A DNA stretch of 64,000 bases from a phage, in NCBI GenBank assembly GCA_036252695.1, contig GCA_036252695.1_4122.1. One strand, written 5' to 3'. The notes below the pieces were generated by a model. That model was given only the letters and a program-made list of their open reading frames with translations. It was not told the origin of the DNA and made no database searches. Position numbers and translations under genes: made by a program. Shown one piece after another: positions 6,460 through 48,306 of the stretch. The stretch's first letter is position 1. The number at the start of each line of letters is the position of its first letter.

Positions 6460-6723
6460 ATGAATATTCAAGATAGATTACAATTACTGTACACACTTGA
6501 ACAGGCTGCTTATGATCTTGTTCGAAAAATCTCAGATGAACTACCTAAAGGAACTAAAGTTCGTGTACGTGAGATGAATTATTTTTCTGGAGTAATTGAA
6601 GAACAAGTACTAACAGTGAATAAAGTAACATACTATGAATCTGAGTTGTCTATTCAGTGTGAATCTGATGATGGATTAATATCATATTATGGAACTGATG
6701 TAGATATAGAGGTAATAAAATGA
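6460..6723 (+). CDS. hypothetical protein, small paralog family
   Basis: Internal ATG at 6460 just after the upstream stop; LPKGTKVRVREMNYF motif like other small paralogs. Confidence 0.45.
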   Translation: MNIQDRLQLLYTLEQAAYDLVRKISDELPKGTKVRVREMNYFSGVIEEQVLTVNKVTYYESELSIQCESDDGLISYYGTDVDIEVIK

Positions 6724-7862
6724 CCCTTTTGCAAATATATGAAGATTTAATGCACTTATGTAATACAAACGATGCATTCTTTTATGTGGATCATAAAAGT
6801 CCTGCTGGTGGCACGTATCGTGTATTCAGTTATCGTCTAGCATCATACACTGATTTCATGCAACCAAATGCGTTGGAAACCCGTGGCTCTATGTGGGAAA
6901 TTGATGAAGAAGGTGAAATGATACGTTGTGCAGCACGTACAATGAAAAAGTTCTTCAATGCTTACGAGAATCCTGCTACAATGTTCCCTGCTAACACCAC
7001 ATGCGATGACATTGCGGTAGTGATGCCTAAGTTGGATGGTTCGATTATCAGTACTTACCGTGATAATGATGGTGAGATTCGTTGTAAATCACATACTGCA
7101 TTGTATTCTGACCATGCGATTAACAGTACTCGACTTATTAACGAGAACCAGAATTTGTATCAGTACATCGACGAAGCGGAACGTTTAGGTTACACAGTTA
7201 ATATGGAGTATACAAGCCCAGAGTACCGAATTGTATTACCATATCAGGTAGAACAACTGTTTGTACTGAACGTTCGTCATCGTGTGAGTGGTGAGTTGCT
7301 ATGTGGTAAAGCACTACGTGATAAGTTTCCATGTCTTGCACAGTACAGTACTAATATGACTGGAAAAGATATTCATCACACTTTTCCGGTACGAAATACC
7401 TTCCGTGAAAGCGTGGAGGAAGTTCATAAAATGCTTGATATTGAGGGTTTTGTGTGCATCCTAAATAATGGGACAATGTGTAAAATAAAGACTGACTGGT
7501 ACAGTTCATTACATCTTACAAAAGATAGTATTATTATTGATTCTCATTTATATGAAGCAGTATTAAATGGTTCAAGTGATGATTTAAAACAATTGTTCAG
7601 TACTGATGAATATGCTATGCAAAAGATATTAAGAATGGAACAATTGGTATTTTCGTGCTATAATGCATTACAAGATGAAGTAGAAAGCTTCGTCAAGGAA
7701 CACAAGCACTTGGAGCGAAAGGAATTCGCAATGAAGGTTCAGGAGTGTTTAACTAATGAACTGAATCGTCAGGGCTTGGCCTTTGCAATGTATAACAATA
7801 AGAAAGTTGATTACAAAGAGACTCTTATAAAATACATGAAAATTGTACTAAAGGATTTTTAG
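6720..7862 (+). CDS. rnlA: RNA ligase 1 (T4 gp63-like)
   Basis: 380-aa protein colinear with T4 Rnl1 as recalled: FFYVDHKS..GGTYRVFSY, ETRGSMWEI and the nucleotidyl-lysine motif MPKLDGS. Confidence 0.8.
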   Translation: MTLLQIYEDLMHLCNTNDAFFYVDHKSPAGGTYRVFSYRLASYTDFMQPNALETRGSMWEIDEEGEMIRCAARTMKKFFNAYENPATMFPANTTCDDIAVVMPKLDGSIISTYRDNDGEIRCKSHTALYSDHAINSTRLINENQNLYQYIDEAERLGYTVNMEYTSPEYRIVLPYQVEQLFVLNVRHRVSGELLCGKALRDKFPCLAQYSTNMTGKDIHHTFPVRNTFRESVEEVHKMLDIEGFVCILNNGTMCKIKTDWYSSLHLTKDSIIIDSHLYEAVLNGSSDDLKQLFSTDEYAMQKILRMEQLVFSCYNALQDEVESFVKEHKHLERKEFAMKVQECLTNELNRQGLAFAMYNNKKVDYKETLIKYMKIVLKDF

Positions 7863-8685: not shown

Positions 8686-9618
8686 ATGCCAACTATCACA
8701 CTAACAGTTGGATTGCCTGGGTGTGGTAAAACTACATGGGCAGTGCAAGAGATTAAAAAAGCCAAATCCAAGACTATCAACATCAACCGTGATGATATTC
8801 GTGAATCTATGGCTGGGTCACATGATGCTTACAAATTCAACGATGCTAATGAGCAGTACGTAGATAATTTACAGTTCAGTGCAGCAAATTCAGCAGCAGA
8901 GAATGGTTGGAACATCATAGTATCCGATACAAACCTTAAACCACATTTCCGTAATCTCTGGAAAGTATGGGCTACAGATAATGGTTATGATTACAAAGAA
9001 AAGAACTTCTATGATGATTTTGTACCTAATGAAGACCGTGGTGCAGATGTTCATGAATTCTTTAAGATTAAAGAGTTCGTAAAACTTTGTAAGAAATATA
9101 ACCTCCAGCGTGAGCGTTCAGTACCAGATGATATCATTGACAAAATGGCAGATACGTACTATTATAGTAAAGCATTACACATTGGTTACTATGGTAATTC
9201 ACGCGAAGCTGCTATCATCGTTGATATCGATGGAACTCTTGCTCATAAATGGGGTCGTAATCCTTACGATGAAAGTACTGTTCTTCAGGATACACCTGAT
9301 GAAGAAGTTATTTTGTCTATTATCGCTGAAGCAGTTTTTCATAAACGCAAGATTATCGTCATGAGTGGGCGTACTGAAGGGTGTCGTGCGGATACCGAAC
9401 AGTGGCTTAAGAATTGGGGTGTTCCTTACGATGCATTGTTTATGCGAGATATCGATGATAAACGTCCTGATGATGTTGTAAAATTCGACCTGTACATGAA
9501 AAATGTGGTTGATCATTACGATGTTAAAAAGGTATATGATGACCGCGATCAAGTTGTATTCATGTGGCGTAAGCTACTTGGGTTGAAAGTTTTCCAAGTG
9601 GCTGAAGGAAATTTCTAA
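8686..9618 (+). CDS. pseT: polynucleotide 5'-kinase / 3'-phosphatase
   Basis: N-terminal Walker A (GLPGCGKTT) kinase module and C-terminal DxDGT (VDIDGTLA) HAD-type phosphatase module; colinear with T4 Pnk; GAGGA RBS. Confidence 0.85.
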   Translation: MPTITLTVGLPGCGKTTWAVQEIKKAKSKTININRDDIRESMAGSHDAYKFNDANEQYVDNLQFSAANSAAENGWNIIVSDTNLKPHFRNLWKVWATDNGYDYKEKNFYDDFVPNEDRGADVHEFFKIKEFVKLCKKYNLQRERSVPDDIIDKMADTYYYSKALHIGYYGNSREAAIIVDIDGTLAHKWGRNPYDESTVLQDTPDEEVILSIIAEAVFHKRKIIVMSGRTEGCRADTEQWLKNWGVPYDALFMRDIDDKRPDDVVKFDLYMKNVVDHYDVKKVYDDRDQVVFMWRKLLGLKVFQVAEGNF

Positions 9619-14069: not shown

Positions 14070-14297
14070 ATGAAAGTAATTCAAGTTATGGTAGAAAAAT
14101 ACCAAACTGAAGATGGTCGTATTTTTGATTCAGCTAAACAAGCTGAACACCATGAACGTATTATTTCTGGTGCACGTAAAGTATGTCCTACATGTAATGG
14201 AACACAACAAGTACCGTCAGAAGATTACCGCAGCTTTTATGCTTGTCCACACTGTGATGGGAAAGGCTACGTAGAAAAACAAGAGGTATGGAAATGA
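14070..14297 (+). CDS. small zinc-ribbon protein
   Basis: 75 aa with CPTC ... CPHC cysteine pairs. Confidence 0.45.
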   Translation: MKVIQVMVEKYQTEDGRIFDSAKQAEHHERIISGARKVCPTCNGTQQVPSEDYRSFYACPHCDGKGYVEKQEVWK

Positions 14298-14707
14298 AAT
14301 TGTATTGCTTAACTAATATGTACTGCCAAGGTGTCCAAGCTGGTATTCAAGCATTCCATGCTGGTGTTAAACTAATTAAAGAATATGAAGGTACTGCTTT
14401 CAGTACTATTATTGATGAATGGTACTATGAACACGAAACTATTGTAGTACTAAATGCTGGTGGACATGATAAGTTAAATTCTTATTATAACAACCTTAGC
14501 AAACAGGGAAAAGTTCCGTTTGCCAAATTCAATGAAGCTGGATTGAATGATGCTATTACCTGTGTAGCAGTACTGTGTACGTCTGAAATGATTGAAGACA
14601 TGGCTGTTATGCGTATGAATCTTCCTGCTGGTGATCAACTAATGCAAGTAAAATATGGTGCATTGTTTGACACATTAAAAGCAATCAGTACAATGAGGAC
14701 TATTTGA
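14288..14707 (+). CDS. hypothetical protein
   Basis: 139-aa ORF with stop-start overlap. Confidence 0.5.
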   Translation: MEMKLYCLTNMYCQGVQAGIQAFHAGVKLIKEYEGTAFSTIIDEWYYEHETIVVLNAGGHDKLNSYYNNLSKQGKVPFAKFNEAGLNDAITCVAVLCTSEMIEDMAVMRMNLPAGDQLMQVKYGALFDTLKAISTMRTI

Positions 14708-15917: not shown

Positions 15918-17336
15918 ATGAGCATTTTAGCAATTCTTGAAAGCATTAAAAATACTAGCAGTACTCTAGGCAAAAAAGCTATTCTTGAACAAAATAAAGA
16001 TAATGTAACTTTACAAAAAGTACTGAAATATACACTCGATCCTAGTATTGTAAGTGGGTATAAAAAGCTACCAGACGCTGATAACGTGTATCAACATATG
16101 ACCTTGGATGAAGCTATTGATAAACTAGAATGCATCTATAAGCGTGCATTGACGGGACATACAGGGCGTGATTTCATTGCTTCAGTACTAGGTAGTGTGA
16201 GTCCAGATGATGCTGAAGTTCTTCGTAAGATGCTTACAAAGAACTTAGATTGTGGTATTCAAGAAAAGAACTGCAATGATGTATTTGGTAAAGGATTTAT
16301 TAAAGATGAACCATATATGCGTTGTTCTTTGCTTGATAAAAAGACTGTTAAGAACATCAACTTCAAAGGTCATGGTTATGCTGTCTCCGAGGTCAAGATG
16401 GATGGTCAGTACTTAAACCATGTAGTCATTAATGGTGCTCTTACCTCTTCCTCCCGTAATGGTAAACTATATGACTTCTTAGGTTGTCGTGATGGTGAGA
16501 TGGCAGGTCTTGCACATCAAATTCAAATGAATGATGAACGTTTTAGTAGTGGTGTCGTCTTTATGGGTGAAGGTCTAGTACTTGATAATGACGGTGAAAC
16601 TATTCTTCCACGAACAACTGGTAATGGTATCATTCAGAAGGCTGGTAAAGATAGTATTAGTCAGAATGAAGCAATGCGTACTGTATTTGTACTATGGGAT
16701 GTTGTTCCTTATGATGCATTCTGTGAAGGTACATGGAATGTAAAACGTAAAGAACGCCGAGAACTTCTTGAATCTGCCATCAATGCATTGGGTAGTGATT
16801 TTGTACGTATGGTGAAATACCGTAAGGTTCAAAACATTAAAGAAGCATTTGAGTACAATAACGAACTCATGGATCAGGGTGAAGAAGGTTCAGTACTGAA
16901 ATGTGAAGATGGTATCTGGAAATCACATACATCTCCTAAGCAGTTGAAAGTAAAACTAAAAATGCAATTGGATTTGCGTATTGTTGGTTTCAACGAAGGT
17001 GAAGGTAAGCGTAAAGGTTCACTTGGTTCTTTACAACTTGAAAGTGCATGTGGCACACTGAAGGTAAATGTAGGAACAGGTATCCGTGAAAAAGATGCAG
17101 AGTGGACATTCAAAACCATTTGGGAACGAATGCAAGAACTAATTGGTAAAGTCGTTACCGTTGAGTGCAATGAGATTGTAATCGACAAGCGTACAGGTGA
17201 ACCATCACTATTTTTACCAGTGTTTATTGAATTTAGATTTGACAAAAACACATGTGACGATTATACTCGTATTTTAGAAATTCGTGATAGTGCTGTTGAG
17301 GTATTCTCGAACAGTATCATTGAAGCACTTAGCTAA
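15918..17336 (+). CDS. ATP-dependent DNA ligase (T4 gp30-like)
   Basis: 472 aa; KxDG adenylation motif (EVKMDGQ); N-terminus (ILEQNKDN) colinear with T4 DNA ligase as recalled. Confidence 0.85.
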   Translation: MSILAILESIKNTSSTLGKKAILEQNKDNVTLQKVLKYTLDPSIVSGYKKLPDADNVYQHMTLDEAIDKLECIYKRALTGHTGRDFIASVLGSVSPDDAEVLRKMLTKNLDCGIQEKNCNDVFGKGFIKDEPYMRCSLLDKKTVKNINFKGHGYAVSEVKMDGQYLNHVVINGALTSSSRNGKLYDFLGCRDGEMAGLAHQIQMNDERFSSGVVFMGEGLVLDNDGETILPRTTGNGIIQKAGKDSISQNEAMRTVFVLWDVVPYDAFCEGTWNVKRKERRELLESAINALGSDFVRMVKYRKVQNIKEAFEYNNELMDQGEEGSVLKCEDGIWKSHTSPKQLKVKLKMQLDLRIVGFNEGEGKRKGSLGSLQLESACGTLKVNVGTGIREKDAEWTFKTIWERMQELIGKVVTVECNEIVIDKRTGEPSLFLPVFIEFRFDKNTCDDYTRILEIRDSAVEVFSNSIIEALS

Positions 17337-22385: not shown

Positions 22386-22763
22386 TTAACCAGGGAGGTT
22401 ACAATAATACAAATCCCAAGGGTGATATTTCATCGCACCAGTACTCAATTTAATTTTATGAAACTGGAATGATTCGGCAAATGCACTATCGTCAATCTTA
22501 ATACAAAAAGTGTTTTTGGCTAGAGTTGGTGCAATTTCCAATGCTGTTTTAGATGCATCTAATCTAATTTTATCTTTATCATAACTAGTGATAGTTACAA
22601 AACGATAAACATTAAAATCAGTATCAATGAGATCGTAAACACAACTAGAACGTTGATTAAAGATGTTCAAGTTATATTTCAATTCACCGTTTATATTAGC
22701 TGCGGTTACACAAAACCCGCCGATATTGAATGGTAGTTTACCTTGTGCTGCGATAGCTTTCAT
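22386..22763 (-). CDS. hypothetical protein (only minus-strand gene in the window)
   Basis: 125-aa ORF on the opposite strand with AAGGAAA RBS (minus strand); bidirectional terminator on one side, AT-rich promoter region on the other. Confidence 0.55.
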   Translation of the reverse strand: MKAIAAQGKLPFNIGGFCVTAANINGELKYNLNIFNQRSSCVYDLIDTDFNVYRFVTITSYDKDKIRLDASKTALEIAPTLAKNTFCIKIDDSAFAESFQFHKIKLSTGAMKYHPWDLYYCNLPG

Positions 22764-22833: not shown

Positions 22834-22862
22834 TTGACAAAACATCAGTGGTATGATATGAT
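22834..22862 (+). promoter_or_regulatory. sigma70-like promoter (TTGACA-17-TATGAT)
   Basis: Consensus -35 with 17-nt spacer in the divergent intergenic region. Confidence 0.45.
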
Positions 22863-24545: not shown

Positions 24546-24746
24546 ATGATGGCATACACAATTTATGAATGGGTTTTGAGTTTTTTTATAGTTTTTTCTA
24601 TTGTTGTAATTTATAACAATGCTAAATGCTTATATAGGGACTTGAAATCCAATGGTTATCACAAAGATAATAATTTTATGTATGCCTATCATATTGGAAT
24701 CATTCTGTTATTATCAATATATTTAATTGTTTTTTATAAGGATTGA
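24546..24746 (+). CDS. small membrane protein
   Basis: 66 aa with two hydrophobic helices. Confidence 0.45.
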   Translation: MMAYTIYEWVLSFFIVFSIVVIYNNAKCLYRDLKSNGYHKDNNFMYAYHIGIILLLSIYLIVFYKD

Positions 24747-24748
24747 AT

Positions 24749-25501
24749 ATGATATCAGAAAAATTTATAAGCAATGAAGGTAAAAAGCGATTACTGATTA
24801 TATCAGGTGCAGGACTTTCTGTTGAAAGTGGTATGGAACCTTTTCGATTTGATGATGGTTTGTGGGATACATTTAAAATTAATGATGTATGTAACATTGC
24901 TAGTTTAACTACAAAATATCATGTTGTTCATTCTTTCTATAATACATTACGTGTAAAATTGGGACAATGCGAACCAAATGCAATGCATTATTTTATAAAA
25001 TCGTTAGAAGATCAATATGGTGATTGCTTCCTTCATATGACTTCTAACATGGACGATCTTTATACTCGTATTGGTGGTCATGAGCTTAAACTTCATGGAA
25101 ACTTGTGTGAAGTTATTGAAAATTATAGTATCAATTCTGATGATTATAATGTTATTAACTGCGGATACGAACCATACATACCAAAACATGATGTTTTTGC
25201 TAAACCAAATGTAGTAATGATTGGAGAATATCATCGTTATGTTGATGGTATACGCTTACCAATTTACGAAGAACGAAATAATGTGTTGAAATCTCTTAAT
25301 GAAAATGATACAGTTATTGTAATTGGTAGTAGCGATACAGTACTGGTATGGTCGAGATTAGCAGCAGCATTACCATGTTATAGTGTTAATGTTAACATTC
25401 GTAAAAATGATAATGATTTTTTGTTTAATGAAAAAGTTATCAAGCCAGCAACCAAAGCAATACCACATCTAGAGACTATAATTAAGGAACGTATGAAATG
25501 A
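24749..25501 (+). CDS. Sir2-family NAD-dependent deacylase (CobB-type sirtuin)
   Basis: ISGAGLSVESGMEPFRFDDGLW NAD-binding motif; PNAMH..HMTSNMDDL (TQNID-like) and catalytic LHG colinear with E. coli CobB as recalled; ATG at 24749 after AAGGA. Confidence 0.75.
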   Translation: MISEKFISNEGKKRLLIISGAGLSVESGMEPFRFDDGLWDTFKINDVCNIASLTTKYHVVHSFYNTLRVKLGQCEPNAMHYFIKSLEDQYGDCFLHMTSNMDDLYTRIGGHELKLHGNLCEVIENYSINSDDYNVINCGYEPYIPKHDVFAKPNVVMIGEYHRYVDGIRLPIYEERNNVLKSLNENDTVIVIGSSDTVLVWSRLAAALPCYSVNVNIRKNDNDFLFNEKVIKPATKAIPHLETIIKERMK

Positions 25502-26049
25502 GTGTTAAAGAAGTTCCCTTTGGTGAATATGGCTCACGTGCAAATTTTGTATTTTGTTATTTCTTTGCAAGAAAATGTAACCCTTACAAAAACTATGAGT
25601 TGAATGATATACCAGAAGTAAATTTAGTTTTACTACAATTACGATGGGATGGTCTTCTTGGTGGATGTGGTGGAACCGTAGAAAGTACTGATATCTCACT
25701 AGAAGATGCGTTGCGTCGTGAAGTTCAAGAAGAAATGGATTACAATATTTTTGTTTCCCATCTTCGACCACTCAAAACTTTTGAAATTTACCCAGGTGCA
25801 AACAGTCACAGTTTTAGCTATGAAGTAACCTATGACGAGTTGAAACACATTAGAGATGGATACACTAATGCTAAACATGCAAGTGCAGAAGTTGCTGGTG
25901 TAAATTTATGTCATATTTCTCGTTATTCTAAGGGACAAAATCGAGAAGCGGGATATAATAATCTTATGACACAGAACTTCATCGGTACAGCAAGACAAGA
26001 ATTGGAGTATCTGGTTCAAAAAGAAAACTTACTAATTAGTTATCTATAG
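25498..26049 (+). CDS. Nudix-like hydrolase
   Basis: Nudix-box-like GGTVEST..LRREVQEEMDY segment (spacing slightly non-canonical); ATGA overlap with the sirtuin gene. Confidence 0.5.
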   Translation: MSVKEVPFGEYGSRANFVFCYFFARKCNPYKNYELNDIPEVNLVLLQLRWDGLLGGCGGTVESTDISLEDALRREVQEEMDYNIFVSHLRPLKTFEIYPGANSHSFSYEVTYDELKHIRDGYTNAKHASAEVAGVNLCHISRYSKGQNREAGYNNLMTQNFIGTARQELEYLVQKENLLISYL

Positions 26050-26058
26050 GAGTTTAAC

Positions 26059-26379
26059 ATGTCTTACGCAATGTTTTTGGATGATATTCGTGATGCAAAT
26101 CTATATTATCCAAACCAAGATATGGTGGTATGTCGTGACTTTAAAAGTGCATGTGAATATGTTATTGAAAATGGAATTCCAGCATTTGTATCATTCGACC
26201 ATGACTTGGGTGATGTGAGCGAAGACGAAAAGACTGGATATTCTTTTGCTAAGTTTCTTATTGATTATATGTTTGATAATAATATTAAAGAACCGTTTGA
26301 GTACTTTGTTCACAGTAGTAATCCTGTTGGTAAAATTAATATTGAAACATACTTAAACAATGGATTTAACGCATTATGA
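26059..26379 (+). CDS. hypothetical protein, possibly receiver-like fold
   Basis: 106 aa with LDDIRD, VSFDHDLG and VHSSNPVG in the order of receiver-domain acidic pocket / Asp / Ser-Thr positions; weak inference. Confidence 0.45.
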   Translation: MSYAMFLDDIRDANLYYPNQDMVVCRDFKSACEYVIENGIPAFVSFDHDLGDVSEDEKTGYSFAKFLIDYMFDNNIKEPFEYFVHSSNPVGKINIETYLNNGFNAL

Positions 26380-26738: not shown

Positions 26739-28178
26739 ATGAAAAAATATACAATTGACACAAATGTACTACTATCTGACCCTAATGCATCTATTGCTTT
26801 TGATGGTGCTGCAATCATTCTACCATTTACAGTACTGGAAGAATTGGATTCAATTAAGAGTCGTAATGTAGATGTTTCACGCGATGCTCGTGTTGCTATT
26901 CGTAACATTGAAGCAATTATTGCAGATGCATCACATGATGAGATTAGTAGTACTGGTGTTAATATTGCTGATGTTCATACCAATATGAATCCTGATAGCA
27001 AATTGTTTGTTATTACAAACGAAGAAGCTGAAGCACTAATTCGTACTAAAGGTTCAGAAGAGAAAGTTCAAACCCTTCTCAAAAGCACAGTACCTGATGA
27101 TAAAATCATTCTGGTAGCTTTAGCAACAGAATCAGTACTGGTAACTCGTGATATCAACATGCGTATCAAAGCACTAAGTTATGGTGTCGAGGTACAAGAT
27201 TATCGCCATGATATTGTTATTGGTGATAGTGATTTGATTCACATTGGTCAACACCATTTGGAAATTAATTTTTGGGAAGTATATAGCAACTTAACCAATA
27301 CTAATATTCAATCCGAACAAGTTGGTCGTCGTTTGTATCATTACATTTCTAAAAGCTTGATTGAACATTTGCTTCCACAAAATCTATGCATCGGTGATTA
27401 TCTATATGATGATGCTGACGTATTATTTGTGTACGAAGGACAATCAGCAATTGAGGAAGATGATGGAACACTAACACCAGAAGATATTTTGGTATTCCAA
27501 GACATTGGACAATCAGTGGCTTTACGTGCTAAAGTATGGGATATTAAAGCAAAGAATATCCAACAAGCACTCGCCATCAACAGTATTCTCGATCCTGATG
27601 TACATCTAACAGTACTGCTAGGTTCTGCTGGTACTGGTAAAACACTAATTACAATTGCTACTGCATTAGAATTAGTACTGGAAAAACGTAAATACGACCG
27701 AATCATCTTCTCTAAAACTCAAGACTCACAGTTTGAAGATATTGGTTTCTTGCCAGGTTCAGAAGCAGAAAAAGTGATTCCATTCTGTGGAGCCGCGATT
27801 GATGCGTTAGAGTTTCTTCATAAAGATGATGCCAACCCACAAGGTAGTATTGAAGAGATTATGAAACGTAATGTTATTCAATTTAAAGCACTAAACTTTG
27901 TACGTGGACGTTCATTCACCAACACTATTCTAGTAGTTGATGAATTCCAAAACATTACACCTGCACAAGCAAAAACCATCTTGACACGAGCAGGGTTAAA
28001 CTGTAAAGTAGTAATTATGGGTAACTTGAGTCAGATTGACAGTAAGTTTATTAGTCCTGTTAACAGTGGTTTGACATATGTAACTGAGAAGTTTAAAGAC
28101 TGGGCAGGTTGTCGTGTCATCGAACTAGAAGGTGTTGTTCGTTCACCACTGGCTGAATTTGCTGAAGAAAATATGTAA
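26739..28178 (+). CDS. phoH: PIN-PhoH (PhoH2-like) ATPase
   Basis: N-terminal PIN-like region (YTIDTNVLL) fused to a PhoH-type NTPase with Walker A GSAGTGKT and DEFQN Walker B. Confidence 0.75.
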   Translation: MKKYTIDTNVLLSDPNASIAFDGAAIILPFTVLEELDSIKSRNVDVSRDARVAIRNIEAIIADASHDEISSTGVNIADVHTNMNPDSKLFVITNEEAEALIRTKGSEEKVQTLLKSTVPDDKIILVALATESVLVTRDINMRIKALSYGVEVQDYRHDIVIGDSDLIHIGQHHLEINFWEVYSNLTNTNIQSEQVGRRLYHYISKSLIEHLLPQNLCIGDYLYDDADVLFVYEGQSAIEEDDGTLTPEDILVFQDIGQSVALRAKVWDIKAKNIQQALAINSILDPDVHLTVLLGSAGTGKTLITIATALELVLEKRKYDRIIFSKTQDSQFEDIGFLPGSEAEKVIPFCGAAIDALEFLHKDDANPQGSIEEIMKRNVIQFKALNFVRGRSFTNTILVVDEFQNITPAQAKTILTRAGLNCKVVIMGNLSQIDSKFISPVNSGLTYVTEKFKDWAGCRVIELEGVVRSPLAEFAEENM

Positions 28179-28435: not shown

Positions 28436-28539
28436 TTCATTTGAAGCAATATTGTGGAGTTCTTAATAAATACTTTTATAAGAATAATAATACTTTTTAT
28501 TAAATTAAAAAGAACTCCATGTGTTATTTCAGTTTTTCG

Positions 28540-28566
28540 TCCCTGTCTTTTGGCAGGGATTTTTTA
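28540..28566 (+). terminator. rho-independent terminator
   Basis: tccctg-loop-caggga hairpin followed by a T-run; a separate 10-bp inverted repeat (tggagttctt / aagaactcca) lies upstream. Confidence 0.5.
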
Positions 28567-28661: not shown

Positions 28662-29219
28662 ATGTTTTTTGACCAAACATTTACGTTGTATCACGATTCT
28701 GGTAAAGTTGAGATTGTAGACGATCTACTTCAATACATTGCTGACCATCAAGGGATAGATCGTTTCCACAGTAAGATGAAATTTGATTTAGCAGAATTCA
28801 ACAAAAAGAATCGTGAAACTTTTTGGAAGAACCGTTTCTATTACGAATTGTTCCCAGAAGAGTTTGTGGGTTATTATCTTTGTACTGAAAAAGGATTACT
28901 TGTATCTCCTGATTTACTTATGGGTGAATACATGATACTCTATAATGAGTACTGGGAACATAAACGTAAAGCTCGTGATACGGAATGGCGACATAAGCGT
29001 TCGTATATGTACAAACATAACCACTCCCGATACAAGCGTCCTAAGACTCAACAAGAGCGTCGTATGGCTTGTGCAGTACTGAAGGATGAGGGGGAACCTG
29101 ATATACGTGGAAGACGTAAGATGCGTTCATTACCATCGTATTGGGACGATATCAGAACAAGACATAGTACTGGCTGGAAATACAGTACTAAACGTAAACA
29201 TCAATACAAAGGGAGCTAA
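28662..29219 (+). CDS. hypothetical basic protein
   Basis: 185 aa, Arg/Lys-rich C-terminal half; AAGGAG RBS. Confidence 0.55.
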   Translation: MFFDQTFTLYHDSGKVEIVDDLLQYIADHQGIDRFHSKMKFDLAEFNKKNRETFWKNRFYYELFPEEFVGYYLCTEKGLLVSPDLLMGEYMILYNEYWEHKRKARDTEWRHKRSYMYKHNHSRYKRPKTQQERRMACAVLKDEGEPDIRGRRKMRSLPSYWDDIRTRHSTGWKYSTKRKHQYKGS

Positions 29220-29246
29220 TGCTCCCTAATTTTATAGGTGAACTTT

Positions 29247-29576
29247 ATGAACAAAATTGACGTTACTGTAGTGATTGGTTATATTGAAATTGAACCGTGT
29301 GGCATTGATACCTTTATTGACACTCTTAATAAGTATCGTGCTGAATATAACGGTCACATTAGTCTTTCACCAGACAGTGGTTACGGCGGTTTTCATGGAT
29401 ACAATGTAATTTGGACCAGAGAAGAAACTGACGAAGAATATAATACACGAATTGAAGCTGAATCTAAAAGATGTGAAGAAATTGAACGTCAAGAAATGAA
29501 ACACTTAATGAACAAGAAATCATTAAGTACCGAAGAGAAATCTAAACTGCTAAAATACATCAAGGATTACATGTAA
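29247..29576 (+). CDS. hypothetical protein
   Basis: ATG at 29247 (track ORF opens at GTG 29238). Confidence 0.5.
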   Translation: MNKIDVTVVIGYIEIEPCGIDTFIDTLNKYRAEYNGHISLSPDSGYGGFHGYNVIWTREETDEEYNTRIEAESKRCEEIERQEMKHLMNKKSLSTEEKSKLLKYIKDYM

Positions 29577-30226
29577 TGAAAAATGTAACTCAAGAAAAGA
29601 TTCTGTACCTTGCAAAGTACAATGGTGGTTTCAATATCATTAGCCGTGAGTACAGTGGTAATTTGGCTAAGTTGATTGACAGTTTGTTAGAATTTGATTT
29701 CATTAAATGGGAAACTAATGAACTTTGGTACGAATATGCTGGTCAGAAATGGGAAAGTGATTATGATAATGCAATACATTCATACACTATCACCAAAGCA
29801 GGTGAAGTTCGATTAGCCATTATGCGTTGTGCATATACTTACAAAAATCATAAAGGTGAAGAAAAACATATTCGCAGAAATGAAGAGCTATTACTTCTCA
29901 TGGAAGCAGCAAAAGTTACAATGCATGATTTGTTCCACCACCCACGTTGGTATGAAAATCTAACAAAAGCAGAGTACAAAGCTTTACGTTACATTGATGA
30001 ACAAAACAATACCCCAGTTGTAGTTGATGATGTTTGTGATGGTGAACTAACCATCAAAAACGTATTTGAAAGCACCAGTACTGAAAGTATTACAGACATT
30101 TCTGTACAGATGGCACTAAAAGCAATGGAACTTTTCAAGACACAATATGAAGGACACAGTGCTGAAGAAGTAGAGCGTGAGTTCATCACACGCGTACAGA
30201 TTGCATTGTTCCAATCGAAAAAGTAG
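29576..30226 (+). CDS. hypothetical protein
   Basis: 216-aa ORF with ATGA overlap. Confidence 0.55.
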   Translation: MKNVTQEKILYLAKYNGGFNIISREYSGNLAKLIDSLLEFDFIKWETNELWYEYAGQKWESDYDNAIHSYTITKAGEVRLAIMRCAYTYKNHKGEEKHIRRNEELLLLMEAAKVTMHDLFHHPRWYENLTKAEYKALRYIDEQNNTPVVVDDVCDGELTIKNVFESTSTESITDISVQMALKAMELFKTQYEGHSAEEVEREFITRVQIALFQSKK

Positions 30227-30443
30227 GATGATATGAAATATGAACATCCGTGATGGGTTATCATATAAAGAAGCAGGTAAAGATGGTGTCAAAGGTGAAG
30301 CTGTAGATCTTTGCATTTGTGCACTTGACATGTTCGCTTTGTAATGCGATAATATGAGTTCAGAAGAGATGGAACGTGAGTTCCTTACTTACATGAATGT
30401 TAAACTAGCCAAATGGCGTAAATCAATTCAATAGGTATTTTAA

Positions 30444-31415
30444 ATGAAAACTAAAATTATTTCTGAACAAAAAATTGGCAATACTACAGTACTGAATCTT
30501 GAAGTTCAAGGTCTTAGTAATGTTCGTTCTCTTACGGTTTGTACTCAGAGAGATGATTTGACTGATTTCTATAGCTCAGAATACATGTCAGAAGAACCTT
30601 GGGATATGGGATGGTTGGACGGTAGTAGTTATATCAGTTCACGTTATAGTTTTGGTTCTCATGAAAATATTGAACAATTAAAAAATGAGTATATTAAACT
30701 CAGTGATACTATTGAAATGAAAGAAGAAGATTGTGTAGAACTTTTCATTTTTGAATTCGATGCCGGAAATGGTAATTCATTACTAGTAAGTAATATTGAA
30801 GAACATTTAATGTATCATGAAATTGAAGATGTAGATTTTGAAAGTATTAAAAATGTTGTTCATATGGTTGGTGGTAGTATTACTGATGATTCAGATATCG
30901 GTCATAATATTTCACTGTGCTTAATTTCTCATCCAAAAACTCGTGGTTTTAAAGTTCCACAAGATGAAACTTACGTGTCTGAAACTGCTGATGAAGGAAT
31001 TTATCCTTGGAATGATTATGTAGAATACTATGGTCATTTCTGTTCTGATACAAAAGAACTGAAAAAAGGCGAACAATATTTTGATATGTTCCGTGCTGCA
31101 CAGCGTTTAGTACTGAATAATACTGAACTATTTCCTGATCGCGGCGAAGAAAATATGATTGATATTATCTTCAAGAACTATGATTATGTACAGAACATTC
31201 CTGATAATGTACATTTGGAATATGTTCACGGTTCTTCAAACAAATTCTATAATATTGAATTGAATGCTCCAGTGTGTGAAGTAATTATTGAGTACGGTGC
31301 TATTGGTAAAACCAGTACTACAGATGGTGAAGAATTCGAAACTATTGAAGAAGCACGTAAGTTCTTCGAGAAGAAAGTAATTTCTAAAATTAAAAGTGGT
31401 TATAGCCCAAAATGA
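30444..31415 (+). CDS. WGR-domain protein
   Basis: C-terminal ~80 aa (SSNKFYNIEL..YGAIGKT...EEARKFFEKK...GY) matches the WGR pattern; N-terminal 240 aa unassigned. Confidence 0.55.
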   Translation: MKTKIISEQKIGNTTVLNLEVQGLSNVRSLTVCTQRDDLTDFYSSEYMSEEPWDMGWLDGSSYISSRYSFGSHENIEQLKNEYIKLSDTIEMKEEDCVELFIFEFDAGNGNSLLVSNIEEHLMYHEIEDVDFESIKNVVHMVGGSITDDSDIGHNISLCLISHPKTRGFKVPQDETYVSETADEGIYPWNDYVEYYGHFCSDTKELKKGEQYFDMFRAAQRLVLNNTELFPDRGEENMIDIIFKNYDYVQNIPDNVHLEYVHGSSNKFYNIELNAPVCEVIIEYGAIGKTSTTDGEEFETIEEARKFFEKKVISKIKSGYSPK

Positions 31416-31792
31416 AAATCACACGCTTTGGTAAAACCTTTGAACTAAACATTGTTTCTGTTTATAAAAAAGGAAAATCAGGAAAGTTAAGCACTGATAA
31501 TATTAGATTTGTTATTAGTGATTATTATGATATGTTTAATCAGGCATTTGAAGAAAATAAATTTGGTTTGATTTTATGTAAACCACAAAAACCGGAATTA
31601 GGTATTTTGGATTTAAGAACTGATAAGTCTGATTTTATTGGTAATCTTGATATTATTGAATTTAAAGTTGATATATCAAAAGAACATTTTAGAGTTAAAA
31701 ACTATAATTATTACAAAGTTGATATTAATTCTATCGAAGTACAAAAAGTACTTGATGAACTTATCAGTAATAATTCGTGTTTTACTAAATGA
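31412..31792 (+). CDS. hypothetical protein
   Basis: 126-aa ORF with ATGA overlap. Confidence 0.5.
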   Translation: MKITRFGKTFELNIVSVYKKGKSGKLSTDNIRFVISDYYDMFNQAFEENKFGLILCKPQKPELGILDLRTDKSDFIGNLDIIEFKVDISKEHFRVKNYNYYKVDINSIEVQKVLDELISNNSCFTK

Positions 31793-32037
31793 GAAAAAAT
31801 ATCATGAAAAATATATTCATTACATTAACAATATTTGTATCCATTATTCTCTGTGGTTGTGCTCCTAAAGTTGATGAGATGGATGCTGAAATCATCCGTC
31901 AAGGTTTAACAAAACTAAATCATCAAGGAACACTATACGCATGTCATACTATGCGTCATGGGCAAGATCTTAACCTCATGTGCAGGAAGATTGTGAATCG
32001 CAAACGTCTTAATACTGTTCCGAAGGATGCACAATGA
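31789..32037 (+). CDS. putative lipoprotein
   Basis: Hydrophobic signal sequence ending in lipobox-like ILCGCA. Confidence 0.5.
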   Translation: MRKNIMKNIFITLTIFVSIILCGCAPKVDEMDAEIIRQGLTKLNHQGTLYACHTMRHGQDLNLMCRKIVNRKRLNTVPKDAQ

Positions 32038-32200
32038 AAGAAGTAATTGGCTACAAATGTAAAAATTGTGGCAAAGATAAGGGTAAGCATTCAATACAAG
32101 GGATGGCTTGTCCAAATCCAGGACGTGGAAATTTCAGAGGGTTCAGTACTGAAAAGTCTTACGAACCGGATCATACCAAACCTGTAATGGGTTATAAATT

Positions 32201-32560
32201 ATGAGTGATTATGTAGCATTTCTTCATCGCTTTGGAGAAGCTAAAGAAAAACATATTATCCGTATGCCATTATATGGTGAAAAAGACTGGTACAAAAGTA
32301 CTGTCAGTGTAGGTGCATTTCGTGACCGTGAAGCTGGATTCTTTCTGGGTAAGCAACATGAACGAGAGGTACTTTGCTCACTTTGGCGTTTAGATGAATG
32401 GGATAGTGATAACGTAAGAACTGCTGAATCAATGATGGCTATTGTTGGTATTGCGAACTATCAGCACCCATATGATCTATTACCTACATTTGAACATGCT
32501 TCTTTGTTTGACTTTTACAAAGCAGTAGGGTATGATTATAAAAAGAAACGTTACGTTTAA
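32201..32560 (+). CDS. hypothetical protein
   Basis: 119-aa ORF. Confidence 0.5.
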   Translation: MSDYVAFLHRFGEAKEKHIIRMPLYGEKDWYKSTVSVGAFRDREAGFFLGKQHEREVLCSLWRLDEWDSDNVRTAESMMAIVGIANYQHPYDLLPTFEHASLFDFYKAVGYDYKKKRYV

Positions 32561-32606
32561 CATCAGTACTGCCATCGTGTGCAGTACTTTTTAATTGGAG
32601 ATTACT

Positions 32607-45631: not shown

Positions 45632-46033
45632 ATGACTACAGTTGATGATATCTATAGCACTATACGCAATATGAGTACAGATAGAAAAGTATTTGGCGAT
45701 AAAGAAAAATCTAAGTGTTATGGTATTGATTCTTTTGATATAATTTCTTATGAGTACAATACAAGTGGAAATAGTTCACTGAATATCGTCTGTCCTCGTG
45801 ATCCAGAAAATAATTTTATGTATGTTGAAATTAATAATGATGGAATGTTTTTTACAAAAGTTTTCAAAGGTGGAATTAATTACGAACCTATTGAATGTAT
45901 GAATGAAGAAACTTTCTTTCAAGAAGATACAATTATCAATTTAGGTTTTAGTTTTGATGATTATAAAACATTAGAACATGACTTTAATCGTTATTATAAT
46001 GGTTTCTTAAAGGAGTTAACAATTTATCTATGA
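45632..46033 (+). CDS. hypothetical protein
   Basis: 133-aa ORF. Confidence 0.5.
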   Translation: MTTVDDIYSTIRNMSTDRKVFGDKEKSKCYGIDSFDIISYEYNTSGNSSLNIVCPRDPENNFMYVEINNDGMFFTKVFKGGINYEPIECMNEETFFQEDTIINLGFSFDDYKTLEHDFNRYYNGFLKELTIYL

Positions 46034-48306
46034 ATAACCAATATATTGAACAAACAATAGTGAAACACTTGGCTGGGTCACAAGCCTACGGAACCAGTAC
46101 ACCTGAAAGTGATACTGATTATCGTGGTATTTTTCTTGCTAATAAAGAATTTATTCTTACACCCTTCTATAAGGTCAAAGAGGTAGCTGATAAAAGCGAA
46201 GAAGATACTAAATTCTATGAGTTGAATCAGTATTTAAAATTATACACTGAAGCTAACCCTAATATTCTTGAATCACTTTGGGTTGAACCTGAACACATTG
46301 TTGAAAGTACTGAAATTTATGACTATCTTCGTTCATTTAACCAAAAACTTCTTAGTTCCAAGATTGCATTTTCATATACTGGTTATGCATATAATCAGAT
46401 TAAGCGTATGACAAATCATCACGGTTGGATGGATAAAGAGCATATTGCTGAACGTAAACTAAATGAAATTTTAGAAGAACATCCAGTCGATGAGGTTCTT
46501 GCGTGGATGTATGATTCATTTCCACAATATCTTGTTGAACGTTTAGATACATCGAACTTACATCCATTTAATGCTAAAAAGATTGATTTTGAAAAATATA
46601 TGCGTGATACGTCATTGCAGTTAGTTTCGAAAAATCCATTAAAGCAATATCATTTTGTAAGATTAGTGCATAACTACACTACTGATAAAATTCTAGATCG
46701 TGATTTCAATTTATTGAATTTTAATAATGGCTATGAACTAATTCATTACGGAGAAAACATTTTTGCGATTATTAAAAATCCGAATGAAAGTACTATCAAT
46801 GCTGATGGTTCACTACGTTACTTCAATAAAGAACGTACTTCGGAAGAATTAAAAGTTCGTCCTGAACTCATTGTAAAATTCAATGAAAAGGAATACAAAG
46901 AAAATAGTGAGAACCGTAAGAGTTATCACAAATGGAAGCAGAACCGTAATGCCAAACGTGCTATTCTTGAATCACACCACGGTTATGACTGTTATAGTTT
47001 TGATACTGAATTCTTAACTAAAGATGGTTGGAAGTTATTTGATGATATTACTGAAAACGATCTATTAGCTACTTTTGACAAAAATCACAAAGTTGAATAT
47101 CAGAAATACACTGAACGTTTTGATAATTTATATAATGGCAATCTATACCATTTCACTGGTCATCACCAAGATACTTTAGTGACTGCTAACCACCGAATGT
47201 ATGTTAAGGATTATGCACGAAATCAACAAAAAGATATGTCTGATTGGAAATTTGTAGAAGCAGCACAATTAAAAGAAACATATAAAATTTTGAATACAAT
47301 ATCCCCAATAACTAAAGAACACAAAGATAAAAAAAGTCCAATTGACTACATGGATATCAAAGTTTATCTTCAACTCATGGGATGGTTTATTTCAGATGGG
47401 TGCATAAATTTCAGGGATGGTAAAGTAAAATCTTTATATATTTCCCAGTCAAAAACTAGTCAAGGTATGCGTTGTGCTTTATCAAAATACAAAAAATCTG
47501 GTCAATTAATGTTTAATGAATACATTATAGAAAAGAAAGATTATCAAGCTAATGACGAATCAAGATATACATTCCCAAGTGAAGTAGCTGAAGCATTATA
47601 TAATGATTGTGGACATGGTTCATATAATAAACGAATTCCAAATTGGGTATTTGATTTAACAAAACGTAAAATGGATTTCCTTCTGAAAGGTTTGTTACAA
47701 GGGGATGGAACAAAACGAAATTTAGTTAATGACAATGATACATTTGTATATTATACTGCCAATTCATTATTAGCTGATGATGTTCAAAAACTAGCATTAC
47801 TATGTGGTTATGAAACATCAAAATGGGGACCATACACAAACGAAACCAATTTTGGTAGTGTTGATATATATCAAATTCATATCAATATGAAACCCAAAAC
47901 CGAAAAAATGAACATGAAACAAAATCTTGAAAAAATTCCAGTTACTAATTACAGAACTGTGTGTTTTTCTGTTCCCAACGGAACACTCATTACTCGTAGA
48001 AATGGAAAAACCGCATTACATGGAAATTGCAAACATGCTATGCATACAATCAGGCTGCTGAATACAGCCGAGGAAGCACTTGAAACTGGTATCATCCAAG
48101 TTCACCGACCGGATGCTGCTATGTTGATGGACATTCGTAACGGGAAGTGGTTGTATCAAGAAGTTATGGATTATTTCAACGAAAAGGTTGACTACATCCG
48201 AAATGTGGCGTATCATAAAACTCATCTACCGAAGCGACCGAACATAAAGTTGGCGACAAAGGTACTATTAGATATCCGTGAAATGCAATGGTACAGTAAA
48301 AAATAA
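46030..48306 (+). CDS. Pol-beta-superfamily nucleotidyltransferase interrupted by an intein-like insertion
   Basis: N-terminal LAGSQAYGTSTPESDTDYRG (GS...SDxD) nucleotidyltransferase motif; a central ~346 aa carries intein/homing-endonuclease hallmarks. Confidence 0.55.
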   Translation: MNNQYIEQTIVKHLAGSQAYGTSTPESDTDYRGIFLANKEFILTPFYKVKEVADKSEEDTKFYELNQYLKLYTEANPNILESLWVEPEHIVESTEIYDYLRSFNQKLLSSKIAFSYTGYAYNQIKRMTNHHGWMDKEHIAERKLNEILEEHPVDEVLAWMYDSFPQYLVERLDTSNLHPFNAKKIDFEKYMRDTSLQLVSKNPLKQYHFVRLVHNYTTDKILDRDFNLLNFNNGYELIHYGENIFAIIKNPNESTINADGSLRYFNKERTSEELKVRPELIVKFNEKEYKENSENRKSYHKWKQNRNAKRAILESHHGYDCYSFDTEFLTKDGWKLFDDITENDLLATFDKNHKVEYQKYTERFDNLYNGNLYHFTGHHQDTLVTANHRMYVKDYARNQQKDMSDWKFVEAAQLKETYKILNTISPITKEHKDKKSPIDYMDIKVYLQLMGWFISDGCINFRDGKVKSLYISQSKTSQGMRCALSKYKKSGQLMFNEYIIEKKDYQANDESRYTFPSEVAEALYNDCGHGSYNKRIPNWVFDLTKRKMDFLLKGLLQGDGTKRNLVNDNDTFVYYTANSLLADDVQKLALLCGYETSKWGPYTNETNFGSVDIYQIHINMKPKTEKMNMKQNLEKIPVTNYRTVCFSVPNGTLITRRNGKTALHGNCKHAMHTIRLLNTAEEALETGIIQVHRPDAAMLMDIRNGKWLYQEVMDYFNEKVDYIRNVAYHKTHLPKRPNIKLATKVLLDIREMQWYSKK
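46990..48027 (+). mobile_element. intein-like element with LAGLIDADG homing endonuclease
   Basis: Begins CYSFDTEFLTKDGW (block A-like), then TANH (block B-like), two LAGLIDADG-like motifs (LMGWFISDGC and LKGLLQGDGT), ends ..ALHGN followed by Cys. Confidence 0.45.

Follow-up and report, generated by a model that had tools for sequence, protein, structure and literature searches.

A WGR-domain protein with an orphan acidic N-terminal domain in Asteriusvirus jumbo phages

WGR domains are best known from the PARP enzymes, and to our knowledge none of the thousands of bacterial and phage WGR proteins outside the PARPs has an established function. The PARP domain is a DNA-break-binding, allosteric module and not a binder of ADP-ribose; PARP2 R153, PARP1 R591 and PARP3 R103 are equivalent residues, and the R153A substitution abolishes the activation of PARP2 by DNA (PMC6294510). 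WGR proteins of bacteria that are reported to be induced by DNA damage include Deinococcus DR2173 and MolR, a member of the LexA regulon (PMC8533742), and fusions of WGR domains with ligases are common (PMC7470946). The bacterial non-PARP proteins that come closest to the one studied here are Q64V53 of Bacteroides fragilis (PDB 2ra8, WGR with LRR), tandem-WGR proteins described as "predicted DNA-binding", and fusions of WGR with SUKH, with DUF4132 (MolR-like) or with ATP-dependent ligases. From jumbo phages, Iyer et al. (2021, Viruses 13:63) reported "WGR transcription factors" of the same family as our protein, among them the Ecwhy_1 protein QAY00573.1, a predicted WGR DNA-binding transcription factor. 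This was a one-line, domain-based prediction with no experiment reported, and the N-terminal domain, the missing basic residue of the motif and the patchy distribution of the gene are not described there.

The gene considered here lies in a stretch of phage DNA of 64,000 nucleotides, the whole of which is called the window below. The window is from an Asteriusvirus and shares 99.5% identity with vB_EcoM_G17 and Sharanji, two Escherichia phages of that genus, which comprises PBECO4/121Q-like E. coli jumbo phages of about 350 kb.

30444..31415, plus strand: CDS for the 323-aa WGR-domain protein, from the ORF list

Its orthologs are PBECO4 YP_009150400.1, phAPEC6 gp336c, Sharanji gp474 and Ecwhy_1 QAY00573.1, the last of which is 97.8% identical to the window protein and shares a 90%-identity cluster with it, and the protein is found at 100% identity in eight Asteriusvirus records. 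GenBank and UniProt already carry a WGR label for it ("WGR domain protein" or "WGR domain-containing protein" in slurp01, UB, Sharanji, BF17, PBECO4, phAPEC6, fEgEco12, UE-S1 and UniRef). Our literature search found no experimental work on the 323-aa protein and gave nothing useful on an Asteriusvirus transcriptome. The occurrence of a WGR-domain gene in a phage, which a preliminary description of this DNA had pointed out, is confirmed here; annotations and a published prediction had already recorded the gene. What is new is the orphan fold of the N-terminal domain, the family-specific loss of the motif arginine and the mosaic, patchy distribution of the gene; these details make a reasonable experimental entry to non-PARP WGR biology and are not a surprising finding.

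The WGR domain and its altered motif

The preliminary description had read the C-terminal ~80 residues as a WGR domain, and a search with a WGR profile bore this out. Residues 256-322 match profile positions 3-74 of 79 of PF05406 with 41.9 bits against a gathering cut-off of 22 (E=1.1e-10), and the same domain is present in every homolog. The fold, an antiparallel sheet with a C-terminal helix, superposes on solved WGR domains, and the identity of the domain thus rests on both sequence and fold. A Pfam scan of the 323-aa protein at E<=10 gave no match besides WGR, and the lack of DUF4132 in that scan sets the protein apart from MolR-like regulators; in NCBIfam there was only a sub-threshold match, to a WGR-like stretch of a Leptospira protein.

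31209..31409, plus strand: WGR domain of bacterial type, residues 256-322 (PF05406 and fold)
31293..31301, plus strand: degenerate W-G-R motif, Y284-G285-A286 (HMMER alignment to 2eoc_A, with the W-G-R of PARP3)

The domain is of a bacterial, non-PARP type, since a profile of the family has 2ra8 as its sole match in the PDB (E=1.8e-6) and the similarity to PARP3 is marginal (E=0.17 to 2eoc). In the 72 proteins whose WGR domains come closest, WGR occurs alone or in tandem, in up to five copies, or is joined to an ATP-dependent DNA ligase (six proteins), to SUKH/SMI1 (four) or to DUF4132 (one); LRR, DUF1963, zf-PARP and BRCT are the other partners, and a PARP catalytic domain occurs in none of the 72. 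The phage protein differs from these bacterial relatives in its partner domain, which is unique to the phage family, and in the C-terminal position of its WGR domain. Human PARP1, PARP2 and PARP3 are further removed, as the phage protein has no ART catalytic domain, no helical regulatory domain and no zinc fingers.

The eponymous Trp-Gly-Arg motif is itself changed in Y284-G285-A286. At its first position 26 of 27 family members have Tyr and one has Trp, and the Gly is invariant. The Arg position is held by Gly (16/27) or Ala (11/27), so that none of the 27 close family members has a basic residue there, unlike the closest bacterial WGR domains, in which K or R occupies this position in 108 of 119 motifs (91%). 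Compared with PARP1/2/3, then, the family has Tyr in place of Trp and Gly or Ala in place of Arg; Tyr for Trp is normal in bacterial WGR domains, and the missing basic residue is not.

Other positions of the same surface are strictly kept. K267 and Y269 of the N-K-F-Y strand and the helix lysines K310 and K315 are invariant (27/27), and K311 is found in 26 of the 27. Together with Y284, these residues align with PARP2/3 backbone contacts, namely K130, Y132, the aromatic W151 and helix lysines, as mapped through the HMMER alignment to PARP3, the PARP2-DNA structures and the stated equivalence of the arginines (PMC6294510). K311 and K315 would correspond to PARP2 K179 and K183, an assignment that follows from the PARP3 alignment and not from structural superposition. 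The chain ends three residues past the G-Y motif and has no counterpart of the C-terminal extension with which PARP2 senses the 5'-phosphate through Y201 (PMC6294510); the contact set of the PARPs at DNA breaks, that is, the equivalents of R153 and Y201, is accordingly absent from the window protein. The net charge of the WGR domain is -3 here and ranges from -3 to +3 across the family, against +5 for the PARP3 fragment and +4 for the 2ra8 fragment.

The acidic N-terminal domain and the spread of the family

30444..31199, plus strand: N-terminal acidic alpha/beta domain, residues 1-252, lineage-specific and without known relative
30873..30896, plus strand: G144-x3-D148-D149-x-D151, the most deeply conserved N-terminal motif (alignment of distant relatives)
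30930-30953, plus strand: H-P-x-T-K-G-F-K segment with K167 and K170, residues 163-170, 3' of the G144..D151 motif

The acidic region in front of the WGR domain could not be assigned in the preliminary description, and the same outcome was reached with wider means. No relative was found in Pfam, in the PDB or among viral structures, a structure search of BFVD gave nothing below E=0.06, there was no match to the ART fold, and comparison with known anti-defence and DNA-mimic proteins revealed no similarity of sequence or fold. Structure prediction nevertheless gave a confident fold (pLDDT 89), modelled as a sheet region of seven strands with a helical part after it (residues 175-250), and the pTM of 0.89 of the two-domain model suggests that both domains are packed in a fixed, rigid arrangement. 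Among 5.8 billion proteins the N-terminal domain was found solely in fusion with WGR, for which reason the two parts probably work as one unit. The whole protein has a net charge of -31, and the pI of the N-terminal domain lies between 4.1 and 4.5 throughout the family. Down to relatives at 16-26% identity, G144, D148 and D149 show no variation and K167 and K170 hardly any.

At least 27 full-length homologs of 38-100% identity, including one from Erwinia phage Hallingskeid at 40%, all have this one architecture. An exhaustive HMMER search added distant full-length relatives at 23-31% identity (P0032, P0034, P0036, P0045 and P0078), which likewise consist of the N-terminal domain and WGR. A still remoter member is gp197 (418 aa) of the Xanthomonas jumbo phage XaC1, which also bears a WGR annotation and was recovered by hhalign with a probability of 99% (E=4.9e-18, 249 aligned columns). 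It resembles the window protein in its two domains, its G..DD motif and its C-terminal WGR, and differs from it by about 165 extra N-terminal residues, the lack of H-P-x-T-K-G-F-K and a basic Y-G-K motif. A stand-alone WGR protein of 74 aa from a metagenome (P0030) is 72% identical to the WGR domain of the family, more than many full-length members are, and therefore the module also exists unfused in a related genome. Neither the family alignment nor P0036 retrieved a relative from IMG/VR, a PHROGs search yielded no family, and PADLOC matched no known defence system.

In Rak2-like contigs the gene order SIR2, Nudix, cREC, an unnamed ORF, PIN-PhoH and the WGR gene recurs, with genes for dCMP deaminase and NrdD farther away, whereas the P0036 clade has a different context, low in GC, rich in orphans and beside an adenylosuccinate-synthetase-like gene; members of the family thus come from two or more lineages of viruses. 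In the contigs of P0036 and P0133 the adjoining genes are of the adenylosuccinate-synthetase family (PurA/PurZ-like), at 11121-12350 in L009, 12112-13341 in L011 and 11121-12350 in L012, each on the minus strand. These contigs have a GC content of about 30% and almost no other ORF with a Pfam match, and they may represent an unrecognised lineage of large phages, in which an enzyme of PurZ type would hint at a modified-base genome.

The phAPEC6 ortholog gp336c is missing from the virion proteome of 62 proteins determined by mass spectrometry (PMC7247149, Table 1). The WGR protein is a non-virion protein, conserved yet dispensable. Protein entries under the name Escherichia coli were also observed, with identical or near-identical copies from numerous bacterial assemblies, where the contigs measure about 342-350 kb, and therefore whole Asteriusvirus genomes occur in assemblies of E. 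coli isolates, in agreement with a report of persistent virulent jumbo phages (bioRxiv 10.1101/2024.12.31.630880).

A mosaic locus separate from the Sir2-Nudix-cREC module

30325..30353, plus strand: sigma-70-like promoter with extended -10 (TTGACA-17-GATAAT, TG), a consensus match 91 nt 5' of the ATG
30318..31415, plus strand: mosaic block comprising the promoter-like element and the WGR gene (DNA identity to fEgEco12)
30244..30437, plus strand: small remnant ORF, or split gene, in the apparent gap that separates the upstream gene from the WGR gene (tblastn to L007)

The candidate promoter agrees with the consensus at 11 of 12 positions and is the best match between 28100 and 32800. Its extended pattern has no other exact match in the window, where 0.29 would be expected at up to one mismatch, and the element has been preserved in Sharanji, fEgEco12 and phAPEC6. 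The window contains a single further near-consensus element with extended -10 (22834-22862, plus strand; TTGACA-17-TATGAT, TG, one mismatch), immediately past ORF 22386-22763, which belongs to the small number of ORFs on the minus strand. Terminator-like hairpins at 28539-28560 and 32565-32588, both annotated in G17, bracket a unit from 28662 to 32560, which separates the WGR gene from the unit of Sir2, Nudix, cREC and PhoH.

Comparison with fEgEco12 revealed a change in DNA identity along the locus. Identity is 98.0% in the WGR gene and 96.7% over the preceding 120 bp, against 76.5% and 83.1% for the adjacent genes and 66 to 94% for the wider neighbourhood, which indicates that a block of about 1.1 kb was recently recombined between Asteriusvirus sublineages. 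CRJP21 has an unrelated, lipoprotein-like ORF of 59 aa in place of about 1.6 kb (roughly 30240-31847). The candidate promoter sits within former coding sequence, since the remnant ORF matches, at 84% identity, the C-terminal 64 aa of the upstream protein (~297 aa) of the diverged relative L007, in a frame different from that of the resident 216-aa ORF (29576-30226). A CAA>TAA change places a stop in the remnant ORF in the window and in Sharanji, and is not found in fEgEco12 and phAPEC6. The module of the remnant recurs in weaker form (about 30% identity) at the end of the 216-aa ORF, which suggests a recombination scar.

The downstream ORF of 126 aa (31412-31792), which overlaps the WGR gene, was considered as the second gene of a two-gene cassette and rejected as a partner, having no homolog at four diverged loci and being missing in fEgEco12, where the WGR gene is present; it is an independent indel. 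Another neighbour of the WGR gene, an ORF of 82 aa (31789-32037, plus strand) whose product has a lipoprotein-like signal peptide (MRKNIMKNIFITLTIFVSIILCGC...), is conserved but shifts in position: it stands immediately upstream of the gene in the Erwinia-type L002, L005 and L006, and on the downstream side in L007 and the E. coli phages.

Farther upstream lies the group of genes that had led the preliminary description to place the WGR protein within an ADP-ribose theme.

24743-25501, plus strand: Sir2 (domain match)
25498-26049, plus strand: Nudt16-like Nudix (domain match)
26059-26379, plus strand: cREC (PF20274, "cyclic-phosphate processing receiver"; domain match)

This tight run corresponds to the NAD+/ADPr-processing linkage of Iyer et al. 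(2021). The sirtuin and Nudix genes named in that description are thereby confirmed by domain, and the macro gene that it also named was not found in the window: Pfam gave no macro domain in about 50 ORFs, a set that does not cover all ORFs below ~100 aa, and phmmer with an approximate YmdB query against all six frames, to be taken as a lead only, gave no match either. The module is 4-6 kb upstream of the WGR gene and shares neither operon nor adjacency with it, as about 4 kb with eight ORFs, PIN-PhoH among them, and the hairpin at 28539-28560 lie between. DNA of the module occurs in 33 phage records, 17 of which encode the WGR protein. All 17 records with the gene have the module, and 16 more keep the module without the gene, namely 121Q (two records), CRJP21, E9.1, JP4, SHEFM2K, ph0011, CMSTMSU, vB_Ec-M-J, Turkey3, WPEC3, WPEC5 and four Salmonella SD phages; the two are thus not inherited together.

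The PIN-PhoH fusion protein (479 aa, 26739-28178, plus strand) has 70-81% identity in diverged relatives, and mass spectrometry of phAPEC6 virions detected its ortholog gp341c with eight peptides and 31% coverage (PMC7247149), an unexpected place for a PhoH-like ATPase. A dense set of genes for the repair of RNA/tRNA and DNA ends was also observed in the window, the DNA ligase being named from the annotation of its relatives.

6720-7862, plus strand: T4 Rnl1-type RNA ligase
8686-9618, plus strand: polynucleotide kinase-phosphatase
14288-14707, plus strand: PTH2-like peptidyl-tRNA hydrolase
15918-17336, plus strand: ATP-dependent DNA ligase
60813-61925, plus strand: enzyme of the CCA-adding/poly(A) polymerase family

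In addition, an ORF of 758 aa (46030-48306, plus strand) begins with a nucleotidyltransferase of RlaP type (RNA repair, pol-beta family) and has a LAGLIDADG match at residues 551-601. Its Sharanji homolog, of just 1233 nt, has separate small ORFs after it, and the 758-aa ORF could contain an intein or a homing-endonuclease fusion or insertion.

Possible roles of the protein

We tentatively favour, at somewhat less than even odds, the hypothesis of a DNA-associated regulator or adaptor, in line with the transcription factor predicted by Iyer et al. (2021), over any part of the WGR protein in ADP-ribose metabolism. It would be a non-structural accessory protein of Rak2/PBECO4-like jumbo phages, probably transcribed by the host RNA polymerase from its own sigma-70-type promoter, whose activity and timing we infer. 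In the model the bacterial-type WGR domain packs rigidly on the acidic alpha/beta domain; WGR would dock the protein on nucleic acid (the DNA backbone, a nick or an end) through K267, Y269, Y284, K310/K311 and K315, and the acidic domain would engage or block a protein partner through a patch formed by G-x3-DD and K-G-F-K. Docking on DNA is favoured because the Lys and Tyr residues at the positions of the PARP2/3 backbone contacts are invariant. This type of WGR domain is tied to DNA breaks by the six ligase fusions among its 72 closest relatives and by others with zf-PARP or BRCT, and a connection with DNA breaks is made plausible by the DNA-damage-induced WGR proteins and WGR-ligase fusions described earlier. 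The hypothesis is further supported by the near-consensus promoter, which travels with the gene in the recombined block, and by the absence of the phAPEC6 ortholog from virions. Several features argue against it, namely the strongly negative charge of the protein, the near-neutral WGR domain, the Gly or Ala in place of the basic motif residue and the lack of a Y201 counterpart, and the two net charges (WGR and whole protein) weakly argue against a sequence-specific transcription factor. The step of transcription from an own promoter is opposed by the nature of that element, which is a consensus match only and lies inside former coding sequence.

The main rival of this regulator or adaptor is a decoy for anti-defence or host takeover, in which the acidic N-terminal domain would act as DNA mimic or protein trap and the Arg-less WGR domain would recognise proteins, for example by imitating or titrating host WGR proteins such as those of the SOS-linked MolR/DUF4132 family. 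We consider such a decoy rather unlikely, even if much of the evidence would suit it: the acidity of the protein is kept throughout the family, the loss of the basic WGR residue is specific to this family, and the gene is an accessory one, missing in almost half of the related records, replaced by a lipoprotein-like gene in CRJP21 and recently exchanged horizontally together with a host-type promoter. The partners SUKH, LRR, DUF4132 and DUF1963 of the closest WGR domains, which are typical of bacterial conflict systems, point in the same direction, as does the DNA-damage induction reported for bacterial WGR proteins (PMC8533742). Acidity by itself is weak evidence, however, with no host target known and no likeness to known anti-defence or DNA-mimic proteins found, and the retention of an invariant Lys/Tyr face in the WGR domain would be expected of a nucleic-acid binder. 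Less probable than a decoy, and in our view quite improbable, is an enzyme whose N-terminal part would be a new catalytic domain, with D148, D149 and D151 (plus D54) binding metal and WGR directing it to nucleic-acid ends. The deep conservation of D148 and D149 and of K167 and K170, the retention of D148/D149 (G..DD) in XaC1_197, the precedent of WGR-ligase fusions for WGR bringing an enzyme to breaks, and a window rich in enzymes of RNA/DNA end repair (Rnl1, PNKP, DNA ligase, RlaP and the CCA-adding enzyme) would all agree with it.

Behind these comes a role as an NAD+/ADP-ribose component together with Sir2, Nudix and cREC, for instance in sensing or binding ADP-ribosylated nucleic acid or poly-ADP-ribose, which we regard as very improbable. 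The familiarity of WGR from PARPs and the confirmed module upstream, in an order (SIR2-Nudix-cREC-PhoH...WGR) found again in a metagenomic relative of 52% identity, speak for it. That order, however, is general core synteny of jumbo phages, also with dCMP deaminase and NrdD, a terminator and PIN-PhoH stand between the two units, no macro domain was found in the window, and neither the protein nor its closest WGR relatives have an ART or PARP catalytic domain; we also know of no WGR domain established as a reader of ADP-ribose. The decisive point against the link is co-occurrence, as 16 of the 33 records carry the module without the WGR gene. As the co-occurrence is patchy, the transcription units are separate and the WGR domain has its affinities outside the PARPs, the link with ADP-ribose is not supported, and of the preliminary description the domain call stands as correct and the functional framing does not.

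The combination of an Arg-less WGR with an obligate acidic domain leaves room for bolder proposals, and we think it rather unlikely that it defines a new class of host-takeover or anti-defence factors or a new enzyme fold with a catalytic DD delivered by WGR. As a takeover or anti-defence factor, the protein could be a decoy of a DNA break or of a host WGR protein (MolR/DUF4132-type, SOS-linked), disarming a host pathway that senses breaks.

These results describe no new kind of system; they confirm an existing annotation and remove a tempting but unsupported link with ADP-ribose. The phage WGR family is a compact case for study, with two domains, a confident structural model, clear conserved residues (K267, Y269, Y284 and K315 in WGR; D148, D149, K167 and K170 in the N-terminal domain) and natural pairs for comparison in PBECO4 and G17, which have the gene, and 121Q and CRJP21, which do not. 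If host takeover or an enzyme proved to be the true reading, it would be the first experimental function of any prokaryotic or viral non-PARP WGR domain. The role of the protein, once worked out, would reveal the recognition targets of non-PARP WGR modules, and how a gene of this kind, dispensable and exchanged horizontally, contributes to jumbo-phage infection.
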